Source: Candidatus Giovannonibacteria bacterium RIFCSPLOWO2_02_FULL_45_28
GTDB lineage: Bacteria; Patescibacteriota; Minisyncoccia; UBA11713; 2-01-FULL-45-33
DNA length: 51,926 nucleotides
Reading direction: 5' to 3'
Assembly: GCA_001780725.1 (NCBI GenBank)
Contig: MFIM01000006.1
Coordinates: 1 to 51,926 of the forward strand
Within the stretch, counting starts at the first letter, position 1, and every line of letters starts with the position of its first letter. Positions 3,313 to 36,163 of the stretch are shown piece by piece. The position numbers and the translations under genes were made by a program. Below the pieces are notes generated by a model. That model was not told the origin of the DNA. It worked only from the letters and a program-made list of their open reading frames with translations, and did not search any database.

Positions 3313-4491
3313 GCGTTCATAAATAGGAAAATCTTTTTTGAGGGCGTCCAGAACGAGTTTTGGGTTCATGGTGATCTCCGGAGGATAAGCTCCAACAGTG
3401 GCTTTGCCTTCTGCGATCAGTTTGGCAAGAACTGCTGTTGTAAAACCGGTGGATTTTTGCATAGAGTTCCACGTGTTATCCGACTCAACATACATAAAAC
3501 ACTCTATTTTGGTCCGCTTGCCGGTGGTTTTGGCTTTGCCGATTGCCACAACTCTCAAAATAGAAAAATCTTTTTGTTTATGTGGATATGTATTCAATAG
3601 CTTCTCAAATTCTTCAATAAAGTTTTCTCTCTTGATTTTTTTTATAATATCGTAATGCCCGGGCCATCGTAGAGTCTTTTCCTGCAGTTTAAGCACATGA
3701 TTTTTGAGATAATATGGAAGCGCTCCTAATCCGCCGGTTACTGCCGCTTCAAATTTGACGCTTCTCTCTTTTTCGCCGAAGAAAAGGTCAAAATCGCTGG
3801 TTGGTATAGTTTCATAATGCGAGCGCGGCATGATTGTCCTGGGCTTCCCTCGCGACAGTACAAACGGCCAGTTGTAATAAATTTCTTCAAGCCCTTTTAA
3901 ATTGAAAAGTTTTTTATAAAATTTTTCCGGCAGACCGCCGACATAGATAATCAGAGATTCCAGCGGCTGCGAGAGATCAAAATTTTCTAACAGAGAAATC
4001 GCCATGATATTGCCCAAGCCCGGTTCTAATCCGCAATCAGGCACCAAAGAGATTCCGTATGATTCTGCACGGCGCGCCATATCGCCGAAAATAATTTTTT
4101 TAGTGATTCCAAGCACTCCGCCCAAATCACAGTAGTGGGTTTTGCCTAAACGGTGCGGCGGCAAACGCGACTCGTTGGTTTTAAGTATGGCTTCTATCGC
4201 AATGGGATTTAAATGAGCAGGAAGCGCGCTTATAACTATATCTTTGTTCCGGAAAAAAATCGGGAGGTCGTCTTTTCTTTTGACGACATCCAGTCCGTCT
4301 CCGCGGACGTTTGCCAAAACCAATGCGGAACGATGCCCAGTTGGACACGTTTTAAGTTTGTTGGCGGTTGCCAGCTCGTATTCCGGATTTTGATCCGCTA
4401 TAAACACAACTGAATCAGTTTCCCGAAGCAGCCTTGCGGCAATAGCCGGACCCATAGAATCTGGACCGCAGCCTAAAACAAGGTAGAGCAT
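3295..4491 (-). CDS. Saccharopine dehydrogenase-family oxidoreductase
   Basis: N-terminal Rossmann-like segment; HYCDLGG, VPDCGLEPGL, KTLRWPGH and MQKSTGF motifs. Confidence 0.8.
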   Translation of the reverse strand: MLYLVLGCGPDSMGPAIAARLLRETDSVVFIADQNPEYELATANKLKTCPTGHRSALVLANVRGDGLDVVKRKDDLPIFFRNKDIVISALPAHLNPIAIEAILKTNESRLPPHRLGKTHYCDLGGVLGITKKIIFGDMARRAESYGISLVPDCGLEPGLGNIMAISLLENFDLSQPLESLIIYVGGLPEKFYKKLFNLKGLEEIYYNWPFVLSRGKPRTIMPRSHYETIPTSDFDLFFGEKERSVKFEAAVTGGLGALPYYLKNHVLKLQEKTLRWPGHYDIIKKIKRENFIEEFEKLLNTYPHKQKDFSILRVVAIGKAKTTGKRTKIECFMYVESDNTWNSMQKSTGFTTAVLAKLIAEGKATVGAYPPEITMNPKLVLDALKKDFPIYERQTPPC

Positions 4492-12249: not shown

Positions 12250-15138
12250 ATGCCCGGCGAATCATATATAAAAATAAGGGGCGCCAAGGTTCATAATCTA
12301 AAGAATATTGATTTAGATATCCCCAAAAATAAGCTTGTGGTGATAACGGGGCTTTCGGGGTCCGGGAAGTCGTCGCTTGCCTTTGATACTATTTACGCCG
12401 AAGCCGAGAGGAGATTTGTGGAGTCGCTCTCTTCCTACGCGCGGCAGTTTTTGGGAGTCAAAGAAAAGCCGGATGTTGAAGCAATCTCCGGCCTTTCGCC
12501 TGCCATTGCTATTGACCAAAAAAGCGTTACAAAAAATCCGCGCTCAACGGTGGGGACGATTACGGAGATTTACGATTATCTCCGTATTTTATTTGCGCGC
12601 GCAGGCGTGCCGCACTGCCCAAATTGCGGCAAAAAAATAGGCAAGCAAAGTACGGACGAGATTTTGAAACACATCCTAAAATTAAAAAACGGCGCGCATA
12701 TTTCAGTGTTGGCCCCAGTGGTGCGCGGCAAAAAAGGCGAGCATAAAAGCATTTTTGCTGAAATTAAGCGCGGCGGATTTTTGCGCGTGAGAATTGACGG
12801 AGACACAATGCGCGTGGCGGAAGCCGAAGAAAAAACATTGAATCCCAAAAAAGCGCACAACATAGAAGTCGTGGTGGATCGGCTGGTGATTGATAAGGAA
12901 CTTGATAGGCCGAGATTGCGCGAATCGCTTGAGACCGCGCTGAAAATCGGGAAAGGGCTTGTTTTGATAAACCACCACACCAAAGATTTTGGTGTGGGGG
13001 TAAATGACCAGCTTTTTTCAGAACACTTTGCCTGTCCTGATTGCGGCATCTCTCTGCCGGAAATTGAGCCGCGCCTTTTTTCTTTTAATTCTCCTTATGG
13101 CGCGTGCCAGCATTGCACGGGTCTTGGCAGCACTCTTGAGGTAGAGCCGGAATTGGTTATTCCAAATAAAAATTTAACTTTGGCCGAAGGGGCGATTCGT
13201 CCGTGGGCTACCGCTTCGCATAAGGTTGGCAGGCAATCGTGGTACTGGTGGATTTTATCGGACCTGGCGGAACGGCATAATTTTTCTTTAAATGCGCCCT
13301 TCGGTAAATTACCTGCGAGTATTCAAAAAATTATTTTGCACGGAGATTCGCCTCGCTCCTCGAGTGTTTTCCCGCGAGGCGAGGAATCAAAATTTGAAGG
13401 AGTAATTGAAAATCTAAAGCGCCGGTGGAAAGAAACGGAGTCGGAATGGACGCGCGAAGAAATTGAAAAATATATGCGCGTGGAGCAATGCCCTGTCTGC
13501 ATGGGGAGGCGGCTTAAACCCGAAGCGCTCTCAATAACTTATTCCGGTAAAAATATTTCCGAGATTTCGGCGATGACAATTTTTGATGCGCGAGAATTTT
13601 TTGCGCCGCCCTCTTTGAAATCCGACTTCAAATCCTCAAAGAAGTCGGACTTCTTCCCGGTCGGCGGCGCCGCGTTTAAGCCTCTTCTTAAAGAAATTCT
13701 GCGCCGGTTGGAATTTTTATTGGAGGTCGGTTTGGATTATTTGACCATAGACCGCGAGTCTACCACTTTGGCGGGAGGCGAAGCGCAGAGAGTGCGTCTC
13801 GCTACGCAAATCGGCTCGTCTTTGACCGGAGTGATTTATGTTTTAGACGAGCCGTCAATCGGTTTGCATTCAAGAGATCACGCGCGTTTGATTAAAACAT
13901 TAAAAGACCTCCGCGATTTAGGGAACACGGTTTTGGTTGTGGAGCACGACGCCGAGACGATGCGCGAGGCGGATTGGATAATTGATTTGGGTCCGGGTGC
14001 TGGCAAGCACGGCGGAAAAGTAATTTTTGAAGGCGAGCACCGCGAATTACTAAAAGCCAAAACTTTGACAGGAGAGTATTTGAGCGGGAAGAGGGAGGTG
14101 AGAGCTACCGCACCCTCTTTGAAGTCGGACTTCTTCTCGGGCGCGACGAACCTTTTCATTAAGGGCGCATCCGAACACAACCTCAAAAATATTGATGTAA
14201 AAATTCCGCTTGGGAAATTCGTTGTTGTCTCCGGCGTTTCTGGCTCCGGAAAATCTTCTTTAATTTCCGACATTTTGGCGAAGGCATTATTAAAATATTT
14301 TTACGGGGCGAAAGAAGAGCCCGGCCAACACAAAAAAATAGAAGGGCTGGAAAATATTGACAAGGCTGTTTTGGTGGATCAATCTCCGATCGGGCGCACG
14401 CCCCGCTCCAACCCCGCGACTTATACAGGCATGTTTTCATTTATGCGCGAAATTTACGCGCGCACGGTTGAGGCGCGTGCGCGAGGATACAAATCTGGCC
14501 GCTTCAGCTTCAATGTAAAGGGCGGGCGGTGCGAGGTTTGCGAAGGGCAGGGGGTTAAAAAAATAGAAATGTATTTTTTGCCGGATATTTACGTGGAGTG
14601 CGAGGAATGCCGTGGCAAGCGGTACAACAAAGAAGCGCTTGAGATTTTGTATCAAAATAAAAATATCGCTGATGTTCTGGATTTATCAGTTGAGGAAGCG
14701 CATCAATTTTTCAAAGATATTCCGCAGATTGACCAGCGCCTGAAAACTTTGGTGGATGTTGGTTTGGGCTATATGAAATTGGGCCAGCCGGCGACGACGC
14801 TTTCCGGAGGAGAAGCGCAGAGAGTAAAACTTGCTTTTGAGCTTTCCAAAAAAGCTACCGGCAGGACGCTTTACATTTTAGATGAGCCGACCACCGGCCT
14901 CCATTTTGACGATATCCAAAAACTTTTAAACATTCTCCGCGCGCTGGTGGACAAGGGTAACAGCGTCGTGGTGATTGAGCACAACATGGACGTTCTTAAA
15001 AACGCCGACCACATTATAGACATGGGTCCCGAAGGCGGCGGCGGCGGAGGAGAAATTATTGCAGAGGGAATACCCAAAGAAATCGCGGCTCATAAAAAAA
15101 GCCACACCGGAGCGTGGCTCAAAAGGGTTTTGGCGTAA
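12250..15138 (+). CDS. uvrA: Excinuclease ABC subunit A
   Basis: Two Walker A motifs ([16 protein letters not shown]), Zn fingers, LAGGEAQR and LSGGEAQR; several short in-frame inserts. Confidence 0.98.
12971..13001. repeat. CCCCACACCAAA-type palindrome, copy in-frame in uvrA
   Basis: accaccacaccaaagattttggtgtgggggt; sister copies at 44558-44588 and 48223-48251. Confidence 0.85.
13345..13388. repeat. GCCTCGC...GCGAGGC palindrome, in-frame in uvrA
   Basis: Encodes [15 protein letters not shown]. Confidence 0.55.
13609..13653. repeat. GAAGTC(C/G)GACTTC palindrome, double copy in uvrA
   Basis: ttgaaatccgacttcaa and gaagtcggacttc; encodes [15 protein letters not shown]. Confidence 0.8.
14113..14133. 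repeat. GAAGTC(C/G)GACTTC palindrome, third copy in uvrA
   Basis: ccctctttgaagtcggacttc shares 5' context with the 13609 copy. Confidence 0.8.
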
Positions 15139-15352
15139 TATTTTCCCACCCGTAAAGTTCTGGGAATACGAATTTTAGGCGCTTATAATTTATTTCGCGA
15201 ACAATTATTACATCATAGTTTTGATCAGGATATTGTTTGATTAGTGCGCGCCGCTTTTTAAATAGCCTCTCGTACTCGATTGGCCCTTCCAACACTTTTA
15301 CTACTTTGTGTGTGTTTAAATCAGCAACAACGCAAAAGTGTTTTTTTGTCAT
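15119..15352 (-). CDS. Hypothetical protein
   Basis: 77-aa ORF filling the gap after uvrA. Confidence 0.5.
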   Translation of the reverse strand: MTKKHFCVVADLNTHKVVKVLEGPIEYERLFKKRRALIKQYPDQNYDVIIVREINYKRLKFVFPELYGWENITPKPF

Positions 15353-15523: not shown

Positions 15524-15563
15524 GACTTGCAACCTGATTGCTATAGCGCTCAAGTTGCAAATT
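15524..15563. repeat. 40-bp palindrome, copy 1 (AATTTGCA-N8-GCTATAGC-N8-TGCAAATT)
   Basis: gacttgca-acctgatt-gctatagc-gctcaagt-tgcaaatt. Confidence 0.8.
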
Positions 15564-15590
15564 GGTTTTACGCGGGTTATTATTAAGTTT

Positions 15591-16163
15591 ATGGCAAGAA
15601 GATCAAGATATTCAGAGATTAGATTGGGACCAACGGCCCAAAAGGTTTTGGTTTTACTCTTTGGCGGCCTGGCTTTGGGTTTGACTTCTTCTCCGGATAG
15701 ATATTTTCGCATAATCAGGACCATCAGGAAAGATTTTGAAAAAATAAACCGTTATGCGTTACACCGCACCATAAGAAATCTTTATCGTTCTAAATTGGTT
15801 AATGTCAAAGAAAATGCTGATGACACTGTCACCTTGGTTTTAACCGACAAGGGGAGGGTGAAAGCTCTAACTTATAATATAGAAAACGTTAATGTGCCGG
15901 ATATGAAGCGGTGGGATAAGCAGTGGCGGGTTGTAATGTTTGATATTCCGGAGCGCTACAAAAAACCTCGTGATGCTTTAAGCAAGACCCTTAAAAAAGC
16001 CGGTTTTTATAAGTTTCAGAAAAGTGTTTTTGTGCATCCGTTTGAGTGTAAGAACGAAGTTGATTTTGTGGTGGAATTTTTTAACCTGCGGCCATACGTG
16101 CGTTACATGTTGGCCAGTCATATTGATAATGAACTGGATATTAAACAACACTTTAATTTATAA
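15591..16163 (+). CDS. PaaX-like wHTH protein with C-terminal Cas2-like ferredoxin domain
   Basis: LTDKG wing; WDKQWRVVMFDIPE...RDAL...LKKAGF...QKSV; ATG 15591 preferred. Confidence 0.8.
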   Translation: MARRSRYSEIRLGPTAQKVLVLLFGGLALGLTSSPDRYFRIIRTIRKDFEKINRYALHRTIRNLYRSKLVNVKENADDTVTLVLTDKGRVKALTYNIENVNVPDMKRWDKQWRVVMFDIPERYKKPRDALSKTLKKAGFYKFQKSVFVHPFECKNEVDFVVEFFNLRPYVRYMLASHIDNELDIKQHFNL

Positions 16164-16201
16164 TTTGCAGTTTCACTGCTATAGCTGTCAGAATGCAAAT
16201 T
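16162..16201. repeat. 40-bp palindrome, copy 2 (starts in the stop codon)
   Basis: aatttgca-gtttcact-gctatagc-tgtcagaa-tgcaaatt. Confidence 0.85.
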
Positions 16202-16259
16202 GGGTTTTTGCTATTTTTTCCCTATACATAAATCTAACGAAGGGATATAATCAAATCAT

Positions 16260-19200
16260 ATGAAAAACATAAAACTAGCTTTGGCGGGTGCGGTCTATTT
16301 CGGCCTTATTTCGGTCATTTTTACAGCTATGCCGCAGGCGGCAAGTGCGGCTCTTACCGAGAGCCAAATTCAGGCGATTTTGAGCCTGCTCCAATCGTTC
16401 GGAGCCGACCAGACGGTTGTCGGCAATGTTAACAGCTCTCTTCGCGGATTGCCGACAACGGGCGGGGGCGGCGGGACAGCCGCTTTTTGCCCTAATTTTA
16501 CCTACAATCTCTACCTCGGGCTCAACGATTCCGATACCGAAGGACAGGTTTCCAAGCTTCAAAAATTTCTAGCTCAAGACCAAACCGTTTATCCAGAAGG
16601 GACAATCACCGGCTTTTACGGACCCTTAACCGAGCAAGCGGTCAAACGTTGGCAGGCTAAAAACAGCGTGGTTTCTTCCGGCTCTCCTGATACTACGGGC
16701 TACGGCGTGGTTGGCTCAAGGACAAGAGAAAGAGTAAGAGCGAATTGCGGTTTTTCAACTCCGGTTCCTCCTACCCCAATTCCTCCTCCAAGCTCGTCAA
16801 ATCTCCCACCAGTCATCAGTGGAGTTTCCGGCCCAACAACTCTTAATACAGGCCAATCAGGAACTTGGACTGTAACTGCCCGCGACCCTGAAAACGGCCC
16901 GCTTTCTTACAATGTTGTTTGGGGTGATGAGAATGTTTACTCTGTTCCAACACTGGCGCCATCCGCATCCGCACCAGTCCAGCAAACCGCCACCTTTTCT
17001 CATACTTATTCCAGCTCCAGAGTTTATACACCCGTTTTTTACGTCACCGACAGCCAAGGCCTTTCCGCGAAAACCAGTTTAAGCGTTAATGTAGGCGGTA
17101 CTGTAACAACTCAACCCTCCATCACTGTTCTTTCTCCGAATGGAGGAGAGAGCTGGGCTGTTGGATCATCTCATGGTATTAGTTGGACGGATTCTAATTT
17201 GGGATCTTTGGGTATATCTATAACACTTGTAGATAGTGCTACGGGCGGACAAGTGTTCGCGCGCGATTTAGCGACAAATATAGGAAATAATAGATATTAC
17301 ACTTGGACCATTCCGAATGACGTGCCAGCAGGAAGCTATAAAATTAACATTTACACATCTGATTGTTGCAAACCGTCGGCATCAGATTCCAGCGACGCGC
17401 CGTTTAGTGTTACATCTCAAGCACAGCCGTTGGTAAAAATCACGTCTCCAGTCGCTAATTCAACTCTCACAAGCAAGAACATCACTGTTAGCGGAACGTG
17501 CTCAAACTATTTTGGTGCGGTGGATGTGTTTTATTATAGTGATAAAAAAGAAGAAGTATTTGTACAATGTATCTCTGGCAAGTGGTCAACAAATATTTCC
17601 GTAAACAGCAATGCCGGTTCCGGAAGTTTTGATTTATATGCCCAGCTGTATCCCAACAACACTTCAGTACAAGATATAATAAAACTTTATTTCAACTGGT
17701 CTAGCGCCCCCTCCATCACCGTTCTTTCTCCGAATGGAGGGGAGAGTTGGCAGATGCAGAATATCCATACCATTCGTTGGACGCCGTATGATCCAAACAC
17801 CGGCGTAAACTCTGCTGATAAAGTCACGGCTTATCTTGAAAGGTTGGAGGGCGGAAATTTTGTTACTGTAGGTAAAATAGTGCCTGCCGGCAAAGCATCT
17901 ATTCATTGGGCCGGAGAAATTGATCAGTTTGGCAAATATGCTTCCCCGGGTGATTACTACGTTCGGACTGTGAATAATATTACCGGCGCTTCTGATCGTA
18001 GCAATAACTCTTTTAAACTTGTCGATTTCGGAACAATAAAAGCCGATTTGAAAATCGGTGGTTTAGATGGTCCTATAACCGTGCCGCTGAGCGGCGGAAC
18101 GTATCAAGCGTCATGGACGTCAGTTAATGCCGATAAGTGCTTGCTCATAAATGGCACTCTTTCCACGTCTGATCCGGAATTTAATATACAAATGCCGCCG
18201 TTGGGTAGCAGAAGTATAAAATTATTCCCGGGCTTATATGGAGAATCTGGACGAGAAGGATATGTCACTATTTCTTGTACTGGCAGCACCAAAGTAGAAG
18301 GCGAAACATCTGATCAGGTCAAAATCCTTCCCGAAACATCAACTCCGTTTGTAAGGGTAGGAGTGCCTAATGGCAAAGAGATTATTGATTTCTCTAAACA
18401 ATATACGATCAGTTGGGCTTCTGCTGGTGTAGCCTATTTTAATATAGCGCTTTATAAAAATGACGCGTTTTTTAACTGGATAGCGTTTAATATTCCCGCA
18501 AGCCCATCCTATTACAACTGGACACCATCAAATACCATTTCTCAAGCCAATATTGGCAACGACGTTTTCAAAATATATATTCTTGGCTACAAAAAACCAG
18601 ATGGTGGGACGGTTGACGACAAAAGTGACGCGCCGTTTAGTATTGTGAGCGCGCAGAATGTGACAGCCACAGATTCCGACGCAAGCCCAAACTATTTAAC
18701 GACATCGCCGTATCCGGTTGAACAACGTCCCGACCTTTTTATATTGGGAGTTGCTAAAGGAACTTATGTCGGAGGTGGAACGTGTTTATACGGCACGGAA
18801 CCCAATCCTACATCATGCAAGCCAACTACGGATAATTTCACGACTTATTATGATCATTGCGCTAACGAGTCGCAATTAAATGAGGCGTATCTTACCGGAG
18901 ATGGAAAGTTTGGCGCTTACGGCGTTTCAGCGCCTAGCGGTTACGTTTGTAAAAATGGCATCTTAGTAAAAACAGTTTCCACCCAACCCTCTATCACCGT
19001 TGTTTCTCCGAATGGGGGAGAGAGCTGGCAGCAGGGCAGTCTTCAGACTATTCGCTGGTCAGCACCATCGTCATCCTCCTACGTTTCTATTTCTCTGATT
19101 GGATATTCCCAACCTTGCACGACAGAGCCATGCCCGCTTTACGCGGTACAAAGTTTTACATTAGGAAAGGCTCCGGCAAGCGGAGGATATTTTAACTGGA

Positions 19201-20444
19201 CTGTTGGAAAAGACATTAACGGCTACGCAATTCCCAGCGGACAATATCTTGTGCAGATTACTGATACGACAACAAACGCTTCAGACCAAAGCAACGCGCC
19301 GTTTAGTATTGTAGATGTTGTTACTGGTGTTCCGGATTTGACCATTACTAAGCTTTCTGTGTATAGAATGGATTCTCTCAATGTCGGAATTGATTATTGT
19401 ATAAAGAATATTGGGAATGCCGATGCGGGTAAATTTTATTTAGAATTTTACAACCTAGACAACCCCTCCTGGGGTTTTGGCGGAGCTGGCTTCGACTCGC
19501 TTGCTGTTGGAAAAGAATTTTGCAGTAAATCAAGCAGAAGTGGTGTTGGATCAAGCGGCGGCAACGGATATGTTCAAGGAAACAACAGAATCAAGGTCTT
19601 TGTAGACGCGAGATATGAAGTGAAAGAATCTAATGAAAATAATAATGAACTAACTTACACTTTTGACACAACACTGACTAGTCCTTCCATCACCGTTCTT
19701 TCTCCGAACGGGGGGGAGAGTTGGGCAGTTGGTTCGGTTCAAACAATTAAGTGGAATTCTACAGGAGTTGGCAAGATTTCCATTTGGCTTTGCAAATCCG
19801 GAGTTTGCGGGCGTTTTGGAAACATTCCTGCGACTGGCATAAATAATACGGGTTCTTACACATTCACTGTAGACACGAGCGTAACTCCCTTTGGGGCTTA
19901 TACGCCAGGTTCCGATCTGAAAATCAGAGTAGCGAGTGAAGATAACTATCCAACCTCCACTGTTTATGACGACAGCAACGCGCCGTTTAGTATTGTTGCC
20001 CCGAGTCCAGATTTAGTTGTTACCTCATTTAGCGTGCCAAGTGGAACGCTTGGACAGGTCGTGAACGCTTCCGCAACCATCTTAAATCAAGGTTCGGCCA
20101 GCACAGGTAGCGGCTTCAGAATAGAGATTGACTATAGCTATCCTCCCGACCTACCATGGGATTGTTCCTACGCGTCGCAGGGCTCTGCCAACACAGACGC
20201 CCTTGCAGTAGGAGCTTCCCGCACCGTTTCAATTCCGCTTACGTTGCCTTCCGTCCGAACCGGCCCTTTCAACGCTGTGATTATGGCTGATTCCGATTGC
20301 GCCATCAGCGAGTCAAATGAAGACAATAATTTCCGCTCTGCGACATATAGCGTTGCGTACAATTCTACGCTTTCCCCGAGCTTTTCAGGGATTGCAAATG
20401 TTCTTGAAGCCGCGAAGCCCTTGTGGTGGCCGACAGGATTTTAA
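16260..20444 (+). CDS. Large modular secreted/surface protein (peptidoglycan-binding, PKD-like, Ig-like repeats, CARDB)
   Basis: Signal peptide; VSKLQKFL...TGFYGPLTEQAVKRWQ; four SITV(L/V)SPNGGESW repeats closed by S(D/N)(A/N)(P/S)F; two PDL CARDB-like modules. Confidence 0.85.
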   Translation: MKNIKLALAGAVYFGLISVIFTAMPQAASAALTESQIQAILSLLQSFGADQTVVGNVNSSLRGLPTTGGGGGTAAFCPNFTYNLYLGLNDSDTEGQVSKLQKFLAQDQTVYPEGTITGFYGPLTEQAVKRWQAKNSVVSSGSPDTTGYGVVGSRTRERVRANCGFSTPVPPTPIPPPSSSNLPPVISGVSGPTTLNTGQSGTWTVTARDPENGPLSYNVVWGDENVYSVPTLAPSASAPVQQTATFSHTYSSSRVYTPVFYVTDSQGLSAKTSLSVNVGGTVTTQPSITVLSPNGGESWAVGSSHGISWTDSNLGSLGISITLVDSATGGQVFARDLATNIGNNRYYTWTIPNDVPAGSYKINIYTSDCCKPSASDSSDAPFSVTSQAQPLVKITSPVANSTLTSKNITVSGTCSNYFGAVDVFYYSDKKEEVFVQCISGKWSTNISVNSNAGSGSFDLYAQLYPNNTSVQDIIKLYFNWSSAPSITVLSPNGGESWQMQNIHTIRWTPYDPNTGVNSADKVTAYLERLEGGNFVTVGKIVPAGKASIHWAGEIDQFGKYASPGDYYVRTVNNITGASDRSNNSFKLVDFGTIKADLKIGGLDGPITVPLSGGTYQASWTSVNADKCLLINGTLSTSDPEFNIQMPPLGSRSIKLFPGLYGESGREGYVTISCTGSTKVEGETSDQVKILPETSTPFVRVGVPNGKEIIDFSKQYTISWASAGVAYFNIALYKNDAFFNWIAFNIPASPSYYNWTPSNTISQANIGNDVFKIYILGYKKPDGGTVDDKSDAPFSIVSAQNVTATDSDASPNYLTTSPYPVEQRPDLFILGVAKGTYVGGGTCLYGTEPNPTSCKPTTDNFTTYYDHCANESQLNEAYLTGDGKFGAYGVSAPSGYVCKNGILVKTVSTQPSITVVSPNGGESWQQGSLQTIRWSAPSSSSYVSISLIGYSQPCTTEPCPLYAVQSFTLGKAPASGGYFNWTVGKDINGYAIPSGQYLVQITDTTTNASDQSNAPFSIVDVVTGVPDLTITKLSVYRMDSLNVGIDYCIKNIGNADAGKFYLEFYNLDNPSWGFGGAGFDSLAVGKEFCSKSSRSGVGSSGGNGYVQGNNRIKVFVDARYEVKESNENNNELTYTFDTTLTSPSITVLSPNGGESWAVGSVQTIKWNSTGVGKISIWLCKSGVCGRFGNIPATGINNTGSYTFTVDTSVTPFGAYTPGSDLKIRVASEDNYPTSTVYDDSNAPFSIVAPSPDLVVTSFSVPSGTLGQVVNASATILNQGSASTGSGFRIEIDYSYPPDLPWDCSYASQGSANTDALAVGASRTVSIPLTLPSVRTGPFNAVIMADSDCAISESNEDNNFRSATYSVAYNSTLSPSFSGIANVLEAAKPLWWPTGF

Positions 20445-20511
20445 AAAATGTAAAACATAAAAAATATTAAGCTCAACTCGCTTAATCCATTAAATTTGCT
20501 ATAGTTAAAAT

Positions 20512-21483
20512 ATGGCAAAAATAGCGATTAACGGATTTGGGAGGATAGGGAGGTCGTTTTTCAAAGCCGCGTACGGAATGCCCGATTTTGGTATTGTAGC
20601 GATTAACGACTTGGCGGATGAAAAAACACTTAAGTATCTCTTAAAATACGACTCGGTCTACGGGCGTTATTTAAAGGAGCCGCATGGCGTCCAATTTTTG
20701 GCGGAAAAAGATCCGGCTAAGCTCCCGTGGAAAAAATTAGGGATTGACGTGGTTGTGGAATCCTCCGGTTTTTTTACAACTTCGGAAAAAGCCAAAGTGC
20801 ATTTGGATGCCGGAGCGAAAAGAGTAGTGATTACAGCTCCTGCGACCGGAGATGTGGTTACGGCTCTTGTGGGCGTGAATGACGACCTGTTCAAAAAAGG
20901 CCATCCGCTAACTTGCAACGCTTCCTGCACTACAAATTCTGTGGCGCCTGTTTTGAAAGTTCTTCTGGAAAATTTCGGCATTAAAAAAGCGGCGATGACG
21001 ACCGTGCATGGTTATACGGCGACTCAAAAATTAGTTGACGGGCCGGATTCCAAAGATCCGCGCCGCGGGCGGGCAGCCGCTTTAAATATTGTTCCTTCCA
21101 CGACCGGCGCGGCGGAAGCGGTGATTCAATCAATTCCGGAGCTTGCAGGAAAATTCCAGGCGGAATCAATACGCGTGCCGGTGATTACCGGCTCTATCAG
21201 CGTAACCACAGCATTGGTTGAGAAAAAAACCACTCGCGAGGCGGTAAATGATGTTTTCAAAAAAGAAGTGGCGAAACCCCGCTGGGCGCATGTTTTGAAA
21301 GTAACTGAAGATCCTATCGTTGTTACAGATATAGTGGGCGAACCCTACGGCGCGATAGTTGACACGACGCTCACGCAAGTTTTGGGAGGTGATTTGGTGA
21401 AAGTTTTCTCCTGGTACGACAACGAAGCCGGCTACACCGCGACATTAATGGAGCATGTAAGAAGAGTGGCCGAAGGATTATGA
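20512..21483 (+). CDS. gap: Glyceraldehyde-3-phosphate dehydrogenase
   Basis: INGFGRIGR, NASCTTN, WYDNE. Confidence 0.97.
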   Translation: MAKIAINGFGRIGRSFFKAAYGMPDFGIVAINDLADEKTLKYLLKYDSVYGRYLKEPHGVQFLAEKDPAKLPWKKLGIDVVVESSGFFTTSEKAKVHLDAGAKRVVITAPATGDVVTALVGVNDDLFKKGHPLTCNASCTTNSVAPVLKVLLENFGIKKAAMTTVHGYTATQKLVDGPDSKDPRRGRAAALNIVPSTTGAAEAVIQSIPELAGKFQAESIRVPVITGSISVTTALVEKKTTREAVNDVFKKEVAKPRWAHVLKVTEDPIVVTDIVGEPYGAIVDTTLTQVLGGDLVKVFSWYDNEAGYTATLMEHVRRVAEGL

Positions 21484-34433: not shown

Positions 34434-34763
34434 ATGTTGTTTTATTTAATTATTTTTGTTTTAAGCGCTGGCGGCATTGTTACAATAATTCTCCGTAATC
34501 GCGAAGAATTTGCTGCGTTTAATTTCGCGAATTTTATGGAAGGGCTTGTCGCCGACGCCAAGGCGGCGTGGCATTCGCACTTGCGCGAAAGATCGTTTAC
34601 TTTTTTGGAAAAGCGCCTTCATAATGTGAGAATTTTGGCGCTTAAAGCGGAGACAAGGCTCTTTAGGGCCGCCAAAACCATTCGTGGAATAAAAGAAAGA
34701 AACGGGAACGGTGGCGGCGCGAATGGGAATGATCACGGAAACGGCGCTGATCTAAATCATTAA
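34434..34763 (+). CDS. Hypothetical membrane-anchored protein
   Basis: N-terminal TM followed by a helical region. Confidence 0.65.
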   Translation: MLFYLIIFVLSAGGIVTIILRNREEFAAFNFANFMEGLVADAKAAWHSHLRERSFTFLEKRLHNVRILALKAETRLFRAAKTIRGIKERNGNGGGANGNDHGNGADLNH

Positions 34764-34834
34764 GCCGGCGGTCAGATTTGAACTGACGACCTACGGTTTA
34801 CAAAACCGTTGCTCTACCGCTGAGCTACGCCGGC
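34763..34834 (-). tRNA. tRNA-Thr(TGT)
   Basis: Reverse complement GCCGGCGTAGCTCAGCGGTAGAGC...acggt-TTTGTAA-accgt...GTTCAAATC...GCCGGC. Confidence 0.95.
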
Positions 34835-34895: not shown

Positions 34896-34935
34896 AATTT
34901 GCAATATGACAGCTATAGCGCTGAAAATGCAAATT
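34896..34935. repeat. 40-bp palindrome, copy 3
   Basis: aatttgca-atatgaca-gctatagc-gctgaaaa-tgcaaatt. Confidence 0.85.
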
Positions 34936-34981
34936 GACGGATAGTTGCAAAAAATTAAAAAGTTGTGTATAATAAAGCTTA

Positions 34982-35377
34982 ATGAAAAAGCTTGCTTTTG
35001 TTGTTTCTGTTTTGCTTTTAACGGCTGTTTTTACAGCTCCTCTTTCCGCCTCGGCAGCCGAAAGCCCGAAAATTAAACCGGGCAGTTTTTTATACGGCTT
35101 TGTCACAACTTTTGAGAAAGTAAACCTATTTTTTACTTTCAACATTTGGATAATACTTGGCATTGTTTCAATAATTTTATTAGCCGTATATTTTAGGCGT
35201 GGACGGAATGCTCTTTGGGGTGGCCTCACTGCTGGAGTAATCATTGGTTTTATAATTGCCTTATTTTCTGGATTTAATTGGTATATTGTAGGAAAGGGAG
35301 CTATATCAGGAACGATGGTTGGATTTGTTACAGAGTTGTTGGGAACACTCTCAGATTATTTGAAAAAAAGGACTTGA
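34982..35377 (+). CDS. Membrane protein, probably chimeric
   Basis: Signal peptide and DUF5667-like start (IKPGSFLYGFVTTFEKVNLFFTF), then an unrelated 3-TM segment. Confidence 0.55.
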   Translation: MKKLAFVVSVLLLTAVFTAPLSASAAESPKIKPGSFLYGFVTTFEKVNLFFTFNIWIILGIVSIILLAVYFRRGRNALWGGLTAGVIIGFIIALFSGFNWYIVGKGAISGTMVGFVTELLGTLSDYLKKRT

Positions 35378-35939: not shown

Positions 35940-36163
35940 TTAGTCATCAATGTCATAATTGTTTAGAGTAAAATTTAGTACGCAGCATTCCGCAATCATT
36001 TTTTCGGCGGGCGGGGATAAAAAATTAAGGAAATTCTTTCTGCTAACTTTCAGCGATCGCTTTAGAATGGCATAGTTGTGAAAATAGGAAAAAGACGGAA
36101 GGTAAAAATCCCCTCCTTTAGAAGGAGTGGCAAGGGGGGGTAATGGTATGTTATAATTTAAAA

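Follow-up and report, generated by a model that had tools for sequence, protein, structure and literature searches.

In a 51.9-kb stretch of DNA from an ultra-small groundwater bacterium of the Candidatus Giovannonibacteria (Patescibacteria), called here the window, a gene for a 190-amino acid (aa) protein, here named X, lies between two copies of a 40-bp palindrome, and this palindrome-X-palindrome unit is a conserved architecture of the X protein family. On balance, and judging from sequence comparison, we think that X is probably an autoregulated mini-PaaX, that the palindrome would be its binding site and that the gene would thereby be bounded by two operators of its own. The architecture is apparently undescribed, as no description of a palindrome-bracketed mini-PaaX module was found in the literature. 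Patescibacteria (the Candidate Phyla Radiation) have tiny genomes with few recognisable regulators, and we know of no experimental genetics for most of their lineages. The gene and the palindromes of the window are as follows.

15524..15563, no strand: palindrome copy 1, predicted upstream operator of X (GACTTGCA ACCTGATT GCTATAGC GCTCAAGT TGCAAATT)
15591..16163, plus strand: gene X, 190 aa, with a probable winged-helix N-terminus and a PaaX_M (Cas2-like) C-terminal domain
16162..16201, no strand: palindrome copy 2, 3'-flanking site of X, with perfect arms
34896..34935, no strand: palindrome copy 3, solo site, with perfect arms

The motif AATTTGCA-N8-GCTATAGC-N8-TGCAAATT has exactly three matches in the window, at the positions given by an initial annotation of this DNA, where none is expected from 100 dinucleotide shuffles. 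The core GCTATAGC occurs at these three copies and nowhere else in the 51.9 kb, and no further 40-bp palindrome of similar quality with this core is present in the window. Copy 1, whose left arm has two mismatches to the motif, ends 27 bp before the ATG of X at 15591, and copy 2 starts inside the stop codon, its first base being the second base of the TAA (16161-16163), both as the same annotation had described. The tight fit of a copy against the stop holds in the window and is not a general rule, since in a 91%-identical ortholog the downstream copy begins 20 bp past the stop. The site orthologous to copy 1 is retained in the loci L001-L006, L092, L110 and L134. Copy 3 lies between a divergent tRNA-Thr gene (34763-34834, minus strand) and a gene for a 131-aa membrane or secreted protein; it is matched at 37 of 40 positions in the orthologous region of L140. 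With 87% conservation across that entire intergenic region, the match tells nothing as a phylogenetic footprint, and we set it aside as such. A scan of metagenomes for the window-class motif returned 74 stretches and yielded 39 distinct sites with TTTGCA arms, with the half-site consensus RATTTGCAAT-T-N4-GCTA. Thus, arms and centre are conserved, as had been claimed, and the N8 spacers do vary, but not freely. These spacers are not complementary (3.7 of 8 positions versus 3.1 in shuffles), which points to block-wise conservation, as expected for a protein reading duplex DNA.

We then consider the family, for which one genome per species was scanned. Relatives of X number more than 551 genomic copies, all in Patescibacteria, and form 466 clusters at 50% identity (E<=1e-30). 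We kept 80 homologous loci for site analysis, taking as the upstream site of each locus the best palindrome within 260 bp 5' of X (78 loci usable). Matching palindromes stand both upstream and just past the stop of X in about 66 of the 80 loci. The upstream palindrome carries the core RC(G/T)A-T(C/A)GY (the hyphen marking the dyad) in about 70 of the 78, most commonly as ACGATCGT (20 loci), GCTATAGC (14) or GCGATCGC (10), and a downstream copy with matching arms follows the X stop in 74 of 80. The arms are specific to the locus or lineage, and the palindromes are often perfect (20/20). Signature palindromes are concentrated beside X, with 102 in 76.5 kb versus 3 in the other 408.5 kb (0.1 expected); this enrichment and the shuffles rule out a chance origin. 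Palindromy, as well as identity between the upstream and downstream copies, is high from position -20 to -1, with the strongest signal at -17 to -8 and -4 to -1, and is at background beyond -21. A homolog 66% identical to X (L007) shares the core and has different arms, AAATCTTACCATTTGACCGCTA-TAGCTGTGAAATGGTAAGATTT. Ten genomes represented among the 80 loci have 2-3 X copies each, and the paralogs of one genome share 45-55% identity with the X of the window and carry their own arms, which bears out the suggestion that each paralog might have its own flanking palindrome. Two more distant family members (L163 and L164) show one clear site each, so the bracket may not extend to all of the superfamily. 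No conserved functional partner gene was found beside X, its neighbours in 45 other loci being assorted housekeeping genes. At one locus, L087, three sites lie at -66, 0 and +645 relative to the upstream site; they have the outer arm AAGTTACAAA in common and differ in the inner 6 bp (ATAACAA versus ACGCCAC), each site being perfectly symmetric, a compensated within-site change.

The upstream copy is tied to the promoter of X. Three promoters were predicted next to the palindromes of the window.

15555..15583, plus strand: predicted X promoter, with the right arm of copy 1 as its -35 (TTGCAA), a 17-bp spacer and the -10 TATTAT
16223..16251, plus strand: predicted promoter of the downstream surface-protein gene, TATACA-17-TATAAT, a consensus match only
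34945..34973, plus strand: predicted promoter of the 131-aa gene (34982-35377), TTGCAA-17-TATAAT

The ATG of X stands 7 nt past the TATTAT, and all three -10 boxes lie 7-8 nt before an ATG with no Shine-Dalgarno sequence (15578-15591, 16246-16260 and 34968-34982), suggesting leaderless mRNAs; a -10 box close to the ATG without a Shine-Dalgarno sequence recurs upstream of many X homologs. Across the family, -10-like hexamers peak 13-16 bp past the X-proximal edge of the upstream palindrome, with 27 of 71 loci falling in these four positions, and no such peak was found on the far side of the upstream palindrome or on either side of the downstream copy. In this fixed register, the proximal arm coincides with the -35 position and the dyad falls near -47. 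As the proximal arm covers the -35 in a fixed register with the -10, the upstream copy is predicted to be an autoregulatory operator of X, and a mini-PaaX that binds the palindrome and autoregulates through this copy is the mechanism best supported here. A sigma-70 promoter inside the palindrome itself (TTGCA as -35 and TATAGC as -10) was rejected because the spacing would be 9 bp.

The protein was compared with domain models and structures. X matches PaaX_M, the Pfam model of the central Cas2-like domain of PaaX (PF20803), over aa 106-180 with E=3.7e-21 (75.5 bits, cutoff 24), and all 30 aligned homologs match it too. The PaaX equivalog TIGR02277 of NCBIfam aligns over aa 83-174 only, at 29.8 bits for a cutoff of 264.55, and the matches to the Cas2 models TIGR01573 (26.8 bits, cutoff 24.5) and PF09827 (25.7 bits, cutoff 23.8) cover about 36-40 profile residues. 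X has no Pfam match to PaaX_C, and the protein ends at aa 190, directly after the Cas2-like domain; its start at 15591 is backed by a 190-aa ortholog (P0003) and by the conserved 27-bp gap to the palindrome. In the AlphaFold2 model (mean predicted local distance difference test score, pLDDT, 78.5), the C-terminal half scores above 87 and its fold matches Cas2 (3exc, 5zyf, 2ivy), VapD, E. coli PaaX (8a39) and Rv0674; the N-terminal half scores 55-70, and the first 100 residues give weak winged-helix matches (MarR/SlyA in PDB; HTH_27 and TFIIE_alpha in Pfam). The C-terminal domain holds 19 of the 28 invariant residues of the family, and the Cas2 catalytic-type Asp (FDIPE, D118) is invariant, while the N-terminal helix varies; it is this helix that aligns with the recognition-helix region of MarR/SlyA winged-helix repressors. 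The initial annotation had described a PaaX-like protein with a Cas2-like fold and no CRISPR nearby, and both points are confirmed by the PaaX_M and 8a39 matches and by the lack of any CRISPR-like array within the window. The window also has no X paralog, no paa genes were seen among the window neighbours of X (UvrA, the surface protein and glyceraldehyde-3-phosphate dehydrogenase, GAPDH), and no cas1 was found among the called neighbours of orthologous X loci.

X and Cas2 have a ferredoxin-like fold in common, with the hhhFDI and QKSVF motifs of X aligning with the beta1 and beta3 motifs of Cas2. In Cas1-Cas2 complexes, dimers of Cas2 lie along duplex DNA. X differs from Cas2 by its fused DNA-binding domain and the absence of cas1 or a CRISPR array nearby, and the Cas2 matches extend over some 40 residues. 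Many X homologs are nevertheless labelled 'CRISPR-associated endonuclease Cas2' in PGAP/NCBI records despite having no CRISPR context, probably a systematic misannotation driven by the marginal TIGR01573 match. For X, PADLOC gave no more than partial Cas2 matches, and a defence system was rejected on this basis.

The closest known counterpart of the proposed system is PaaX. In E. coli, PaaX has as its operator a 39-bp split palindrome, TGATTC-N27-GAATCA, and autorepression works through steric hindrance at the promoter (PMC9493321). This phenylacetyl-CoA-responsive repressor of E. coli and Pseudomonas (PDB 8A39, 3L09) has the Cas2-like domain and a probable N-terminal winged helix in common with X, and the X sites would fit the geometry of its operator, in which inverted repeats stand far apart, extend over about 39-40 bp in all and overlap the promoter. 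X differs from PaaX in its length of 190 aa, the lack of the C-terminal ligand-binding domain and the lack of a paa operon nearby, as well as in a predicted operator with an added invariant central core and a second operator at the 3' end of the gene; moreover, the X family comprises many paralogs with different arms and is apparently confined to Patescibacteria.

We propose that X is a two-domain PaaX-like DNA-binding protein, made of a winged-helix N-terminus and a Cas2-fold domain, that would act without the ligand-binding C-terminal domain of PaaX. The conserved core of the sites parallels the conserved Cas2-like domain, and the variable arms parallel the variable N-terminal helix, suggesting a central dimer on the core with winged helices on the arms. 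Specifically, an X dimer would sit on the dyad with its conserved Cas2-like domains over the invariant core, and its two variable winged helices, centred about 12.5 bp on either side of the dyad, would read the lineage-specific 10-bp arms, for a span of about 40 bp as on the E. coli PaaX operator. Once bound at the upstream copy, with an arm on the -35 and the dyad near -47, X should hinder RNA polymerase. The 3' copy would be an intrinsic part of the X unit that cooperates with the upstream site, most likely by looping or as a protein roadblock insulating X from neighbouring transcription, and the few solo copies (34896-34935, and possibly copy 2 with respect to the surface-protein gene) would constitute a small regulon. 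A regulator gene between two operator regions is also found with lambda CI (OL/OR) and DeoR, where cooperative binding over hundreds of bp sharpens autoregulation. However, the X unit is not in a prophage, its second site abuts the stop codon and X offers no evidence of higher oligomers.

We turn next to the downstream copy. In the window it is followed by one large gene.

16260..20444, plus strand: surface-protein gene, secreted, 1394 aa, with PG_binding_1, PKD, Big_7, Kre9_KNH Ig-like and CARDB domains

Copy 2 ends 58 bp before the ATG of this gene and 21 bp before its predicted -35, the -10 box being 8 bp before the ATG, and copy 3 ends 9 bp before the predicted promoter of the 131-aa gene. 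These distances, with the fact that an ortholog of the surface-protein gene adjoins X in L001, L092, L106 and L134, would fit an ordinary local regulon, in which the surface-protein gene has copy 2 as its operator, the 131-aa gene has copy 3, and the bracket is a by-product of gene packing. The pilin-like genes of L022 that carry local-class sites would fit as well: at 3569-4227 of that contig, X is followed by two adjacent palindromes, a minus-strand prepilin-like gene and a third perfect palindrome at the 5' side of the latter, so that a gene other than X is bracketed by sites of the local class, with a prepilin peptidase gene and another pilin gene adjoining. Across the family, however, the downstream copy tracks the stop of X and not the start of the next gene. 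Both copies are present whatever the strands of the upstream and downstream neighbours (++ in 29 loci, -- in 10, -+ in 10 and +- in 9), and the site remains 29-66 bp from the X stop even in loci where more than 300 bp separate X from the gene that follows. The genes past it are convergent in several loci (GatB, an AI-2E transporter, SecA, threonyl-tRNA synthetase, a subtilase and phosphoglycerate kinase, as well as another class II aminoacyl-tRNA synthetase and RNase J), and some intergenic spaces are only as long as the palindrome, which at L018 makes up the whole space past X. Neighbours running in the same direction as X are a mixed set of housekeeping genes that no theme unites. The 74 loci with a downstream copy include at least nine in which it is kept before a convergent housekeeping gene, and no -10 register was seen beyond it. 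The copy does not, then, simply serve the following gene as its operator, and we regard the ordinary regulon as very improbable. The idea of the initial annotation that copy 2 controls the surface-protein gene may thus hold locally, given the promoter predicted past it, and fails as an explanation for the family. An antisense promoter directed from the downstream site back into X was rejected in view of the missing -10 register. An intrinsic terminator was likewise rejected for want of a T-run, with a mean of 4.5 T in the 12 nt past the site at a background of 28% T; this T count equals the A count before the site.

Could the sites act instead as hairpins? The palindrome would then be an RNA or single-stranded DNA element, such as a 3'-end, terminator or processing signal, recognised by the Cas2-like RNase-fold domain for post-transcriptional control. 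Family sites, many of them perfect, average -17 to -19 kcal/mol as RNA hairpins, and the way in which the downstream copy hugs the stop wherever the next gene lies, like the placing of many solo sites just past stop codons, would suit such an element. Differences between sites that affect both halves are preferentially symmetric within a site (97, versus 34 direct and 25 cross), as at L087, and sense-strand G.U exceed A.C mismatches only at the transcribed downstream sites (66 versus 39, p=0.011; upstream 56 versus 49). Nonetheless, most mismatches are not G.U, and quasi-palindrome template switching can yield symmetric changes with no hairpin function. The hairpins of the window are weak (-11 to -14 kcal/mol, z-scores -1.6 to -2.6), and the window-class spacers, as noted, do not pair. 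The upstream copy lies 5' of the -10 box and over the -35, hence outside the X transcript, and it also occurs in the 26 loci with a divergent upstream neighbour; the downstream copy has no T-run after it. Proteins of the PaaX type bind duplex DNA of a like span (PMC9493321). Altogether, we judge a hairpin function of this kind improbable.

Another explanation, put forward in the initial annotation, is that of a mobile single-gene cassette, with the palindromes as recombination or cleavage sites, solo palindromes as empty sites, and excision and insertion carried out by X through its Cas2-like nuclease fold or by a host recombinase. The unit is indeed compact and self-contained, between unrelated housekeeping genes and with no conserved partner, each paralog has its own arms as transposase-end pairs do, solo palindromes exist and the invariant Asp of the Cas2 motif is retained. 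Nevertheless, no target-site duplications were found around X units, and between the two copies of a locus direct and inverted similarity are balanced (21 versus 21, with 24 ties). Outer-outer, inner-inner and direct pairings of half-sites do not differ in similarity, which is what selection of all half-sites towards a single consensus would produce; the pairing of outer and inner halves predicted by a cut-and-paste cassette was not seen. The locus is also stable: the 24 contigs inspected that encode the identical UvrA all keep X; in orthologs of 89-91% identity, X retains its two sites and its place between UvrA and the surface-protein gene; this synteny holds, with both sites, to about 83% UvrA identity; and an X-GatB synteny is found in two species. 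The paralogs, at 45-55% identity and with their own arms, are not recent copies. No X remnants, pseudogenes or tandem copies were found beside X, and X has no recognised recombinase or transposase fold, only the winged-helix and Cas2 folds. A transposon-like insertion was rejected because there are no target-site duplications, no orientation bias and only divergent paralogs, and a phage origin because no X homolog was found in the viral contigs of IMG/VR and the PHROG matches are weak only.

Candidate empty sites were found at three UvrA loci of 84% UvrA identity (L128, L119 and L120), which have one palindrome 22 bp past the UvrA stop and no X, and where homology to X-bearing loci ends at the palindrome. 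The expected single-palindrome loci thus exist, but gene order in these genomes differs on both sides of UvrA, for which reason they are not clean empty alleles. On a 2.5-kb metagenome contig, L156 (1475-1640), the sequence is 99.9% identical to the L106 X locus up to the outer edge of the palindrome and then diverges, with the 3' end of MurA fused to a YjeF_C-like open reading frame (ORF) past the palindrome. L156 may be a true recombinant with its junction at the palindrome, or else a chimera of the assembly; as it looks chimeric, with its fused ORF, we set it aside and do not count it as an empty or recombinant allele. The MurA-side site of L157 has a long central stretch, including the left spacer and the core, in common with copy 2 of the window. 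Public records list as a gene a 77-aa minus-strand ORF at 15119-15352, between UvrA and X, which has no Pfam match; it is absent in L110 and L092, where the palindrome sits 22 bp past UvrA. Taken together, we hold recombination sites of a single-gene cassette to be quite unlikely; mobility of X in deep time may be allowed for, and nothing in the sequences indicates current activity. Integron attC cassettes also have a single ORF closely followed by an imperfect palindromic site, yet they differ from the X units, which form no cassette arrays, have sites of one specificity on both sides and no direct-repeat signature, and are stable at strain level; no integrase was identified in the region examined.

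The solo sites were considered separately. Most of the 39 window-class sites have no adjoining X gene, and they come mostly from Giovannonibacteria-like contigs with a GC content of 0.42-0.47. All 39 are intergenic, and many are found 0-37 bp past the stops of genes such as those for ZnuB-like, UvrA, MurA and S5 proteins; on the other side, a -35 hexamer of the TTGACA type stands 8-18 bp away in several cases. No known RNA genes were found beside the solo sites. At four places (L128 2504-2610, L120 13805-13912, L095 5428-5512 and L103 1911-1995), sites of two arm classes stand 5-30 bp apart in one intergenic region, with cores GCTATAGC and either ACGATCGT or GCTATCGC, which points to combinatorial sites or shared hot spots. 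The window itself has two weak signature palindromes, each 11/20: one at 20482-20521 with the core GCTATAGT, overlapping the GAPDH start at 20512, and one at 36037-36076 with the core GCGATCGC and other arms, 5' of an oxidoreductase gene at 36143, which may be a site for an X paralog encoded elsewhere in the genome. An unrelated GC-rich palindrome, GTTGCAGTCCGG(C/A)GGCTATAGCCGCCGGACTGCAAC, was also caught by the search pattern because it contains TTGCA and GCTATAGC blocks; it recurs in peat and bog metagenome contigs of 54-61% GC (L089, L093, L096, L099, L114, L117, L122, L136, L137, L143, L145 and L147).

Several observations weigh against X being simply an autorepressor flanked by its operators. 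A plain repressor needs no second operator at the 3' end of its own gene, and the downstream copy has no promoter register in either direction and lies between convergent stops in at least nine loci. The solo window-class sites are mostly found within the same 0-37 bp past stop codons, and 6 of the 13 that could be classified are between apparently convergent ORFs, at least some of these with a TTGACA promoter on one side. In the family at large, solo sites are rare off the gene flanks (about 3 per 408 kb), and the genes beside X have no common function. The symmetric changes and the G.U excess confined to downstream sites hint at hairpin-level constraints too. Finally, the N-terminal domain is modelled at low confidence (pLDDT 55-70), and the invariant D118 would leave room for a nuclease activity of X. 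The candidate roles for the 3' site are looping, a roadblock or insulator, a 3'-end hairpin and a mobility relic.

A minor share of probability, unlikely but larger than that of the other alternatives, goes to palindrome-X-palindrome units being autonomous modules, in which the main targets of a Cas2-fold protein would be the ends of its own gene, either as relics of selfish elements or as a roadblock and insulator system. As selfish relics, the units might be a domesticated, palindrome-bounded and previously unrecognised class, a Patescibacterial analogue of the repetitive extragenic palindromes (REPs) and their REP-associated tyrosine transposases (RAYTs), built on the Cas2 fold. As insulators, they might form a dedicated system marking gene ends in genomes with few conventional terminators. 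Like X, a RAYT is encoded by a single gene flanked by its own extragenic palindrome, of a lineage-specific type, with solo copies in intergenic DNA, often past the 3' ends of genes. In contrast, RAYTs are HUH/Y1 enzymes and no HUH domain was found in X, REPs number hundreds per genome whereas X solo sites are about 3 per 408 kb outside the flanks, and the upstream copy of X is in a fixed promoter register.

In conclusion, the X family with its palindromes offers hundreds of natural protein-site pairs for decoding winged-helix specificity, as the presumed cognate 40-bp site can be read from the flanks of the gene, and its analysis corrects a widespread 'Cas2' misannotation. The family also poses the puzzle of why a regulator would need one of its sites past the end of the gene that encodes it. 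Should this 3' site prove to be a roadblock, an insulator or a mobility relic, reduced genomes would be seen to organise gene units by a new principle.

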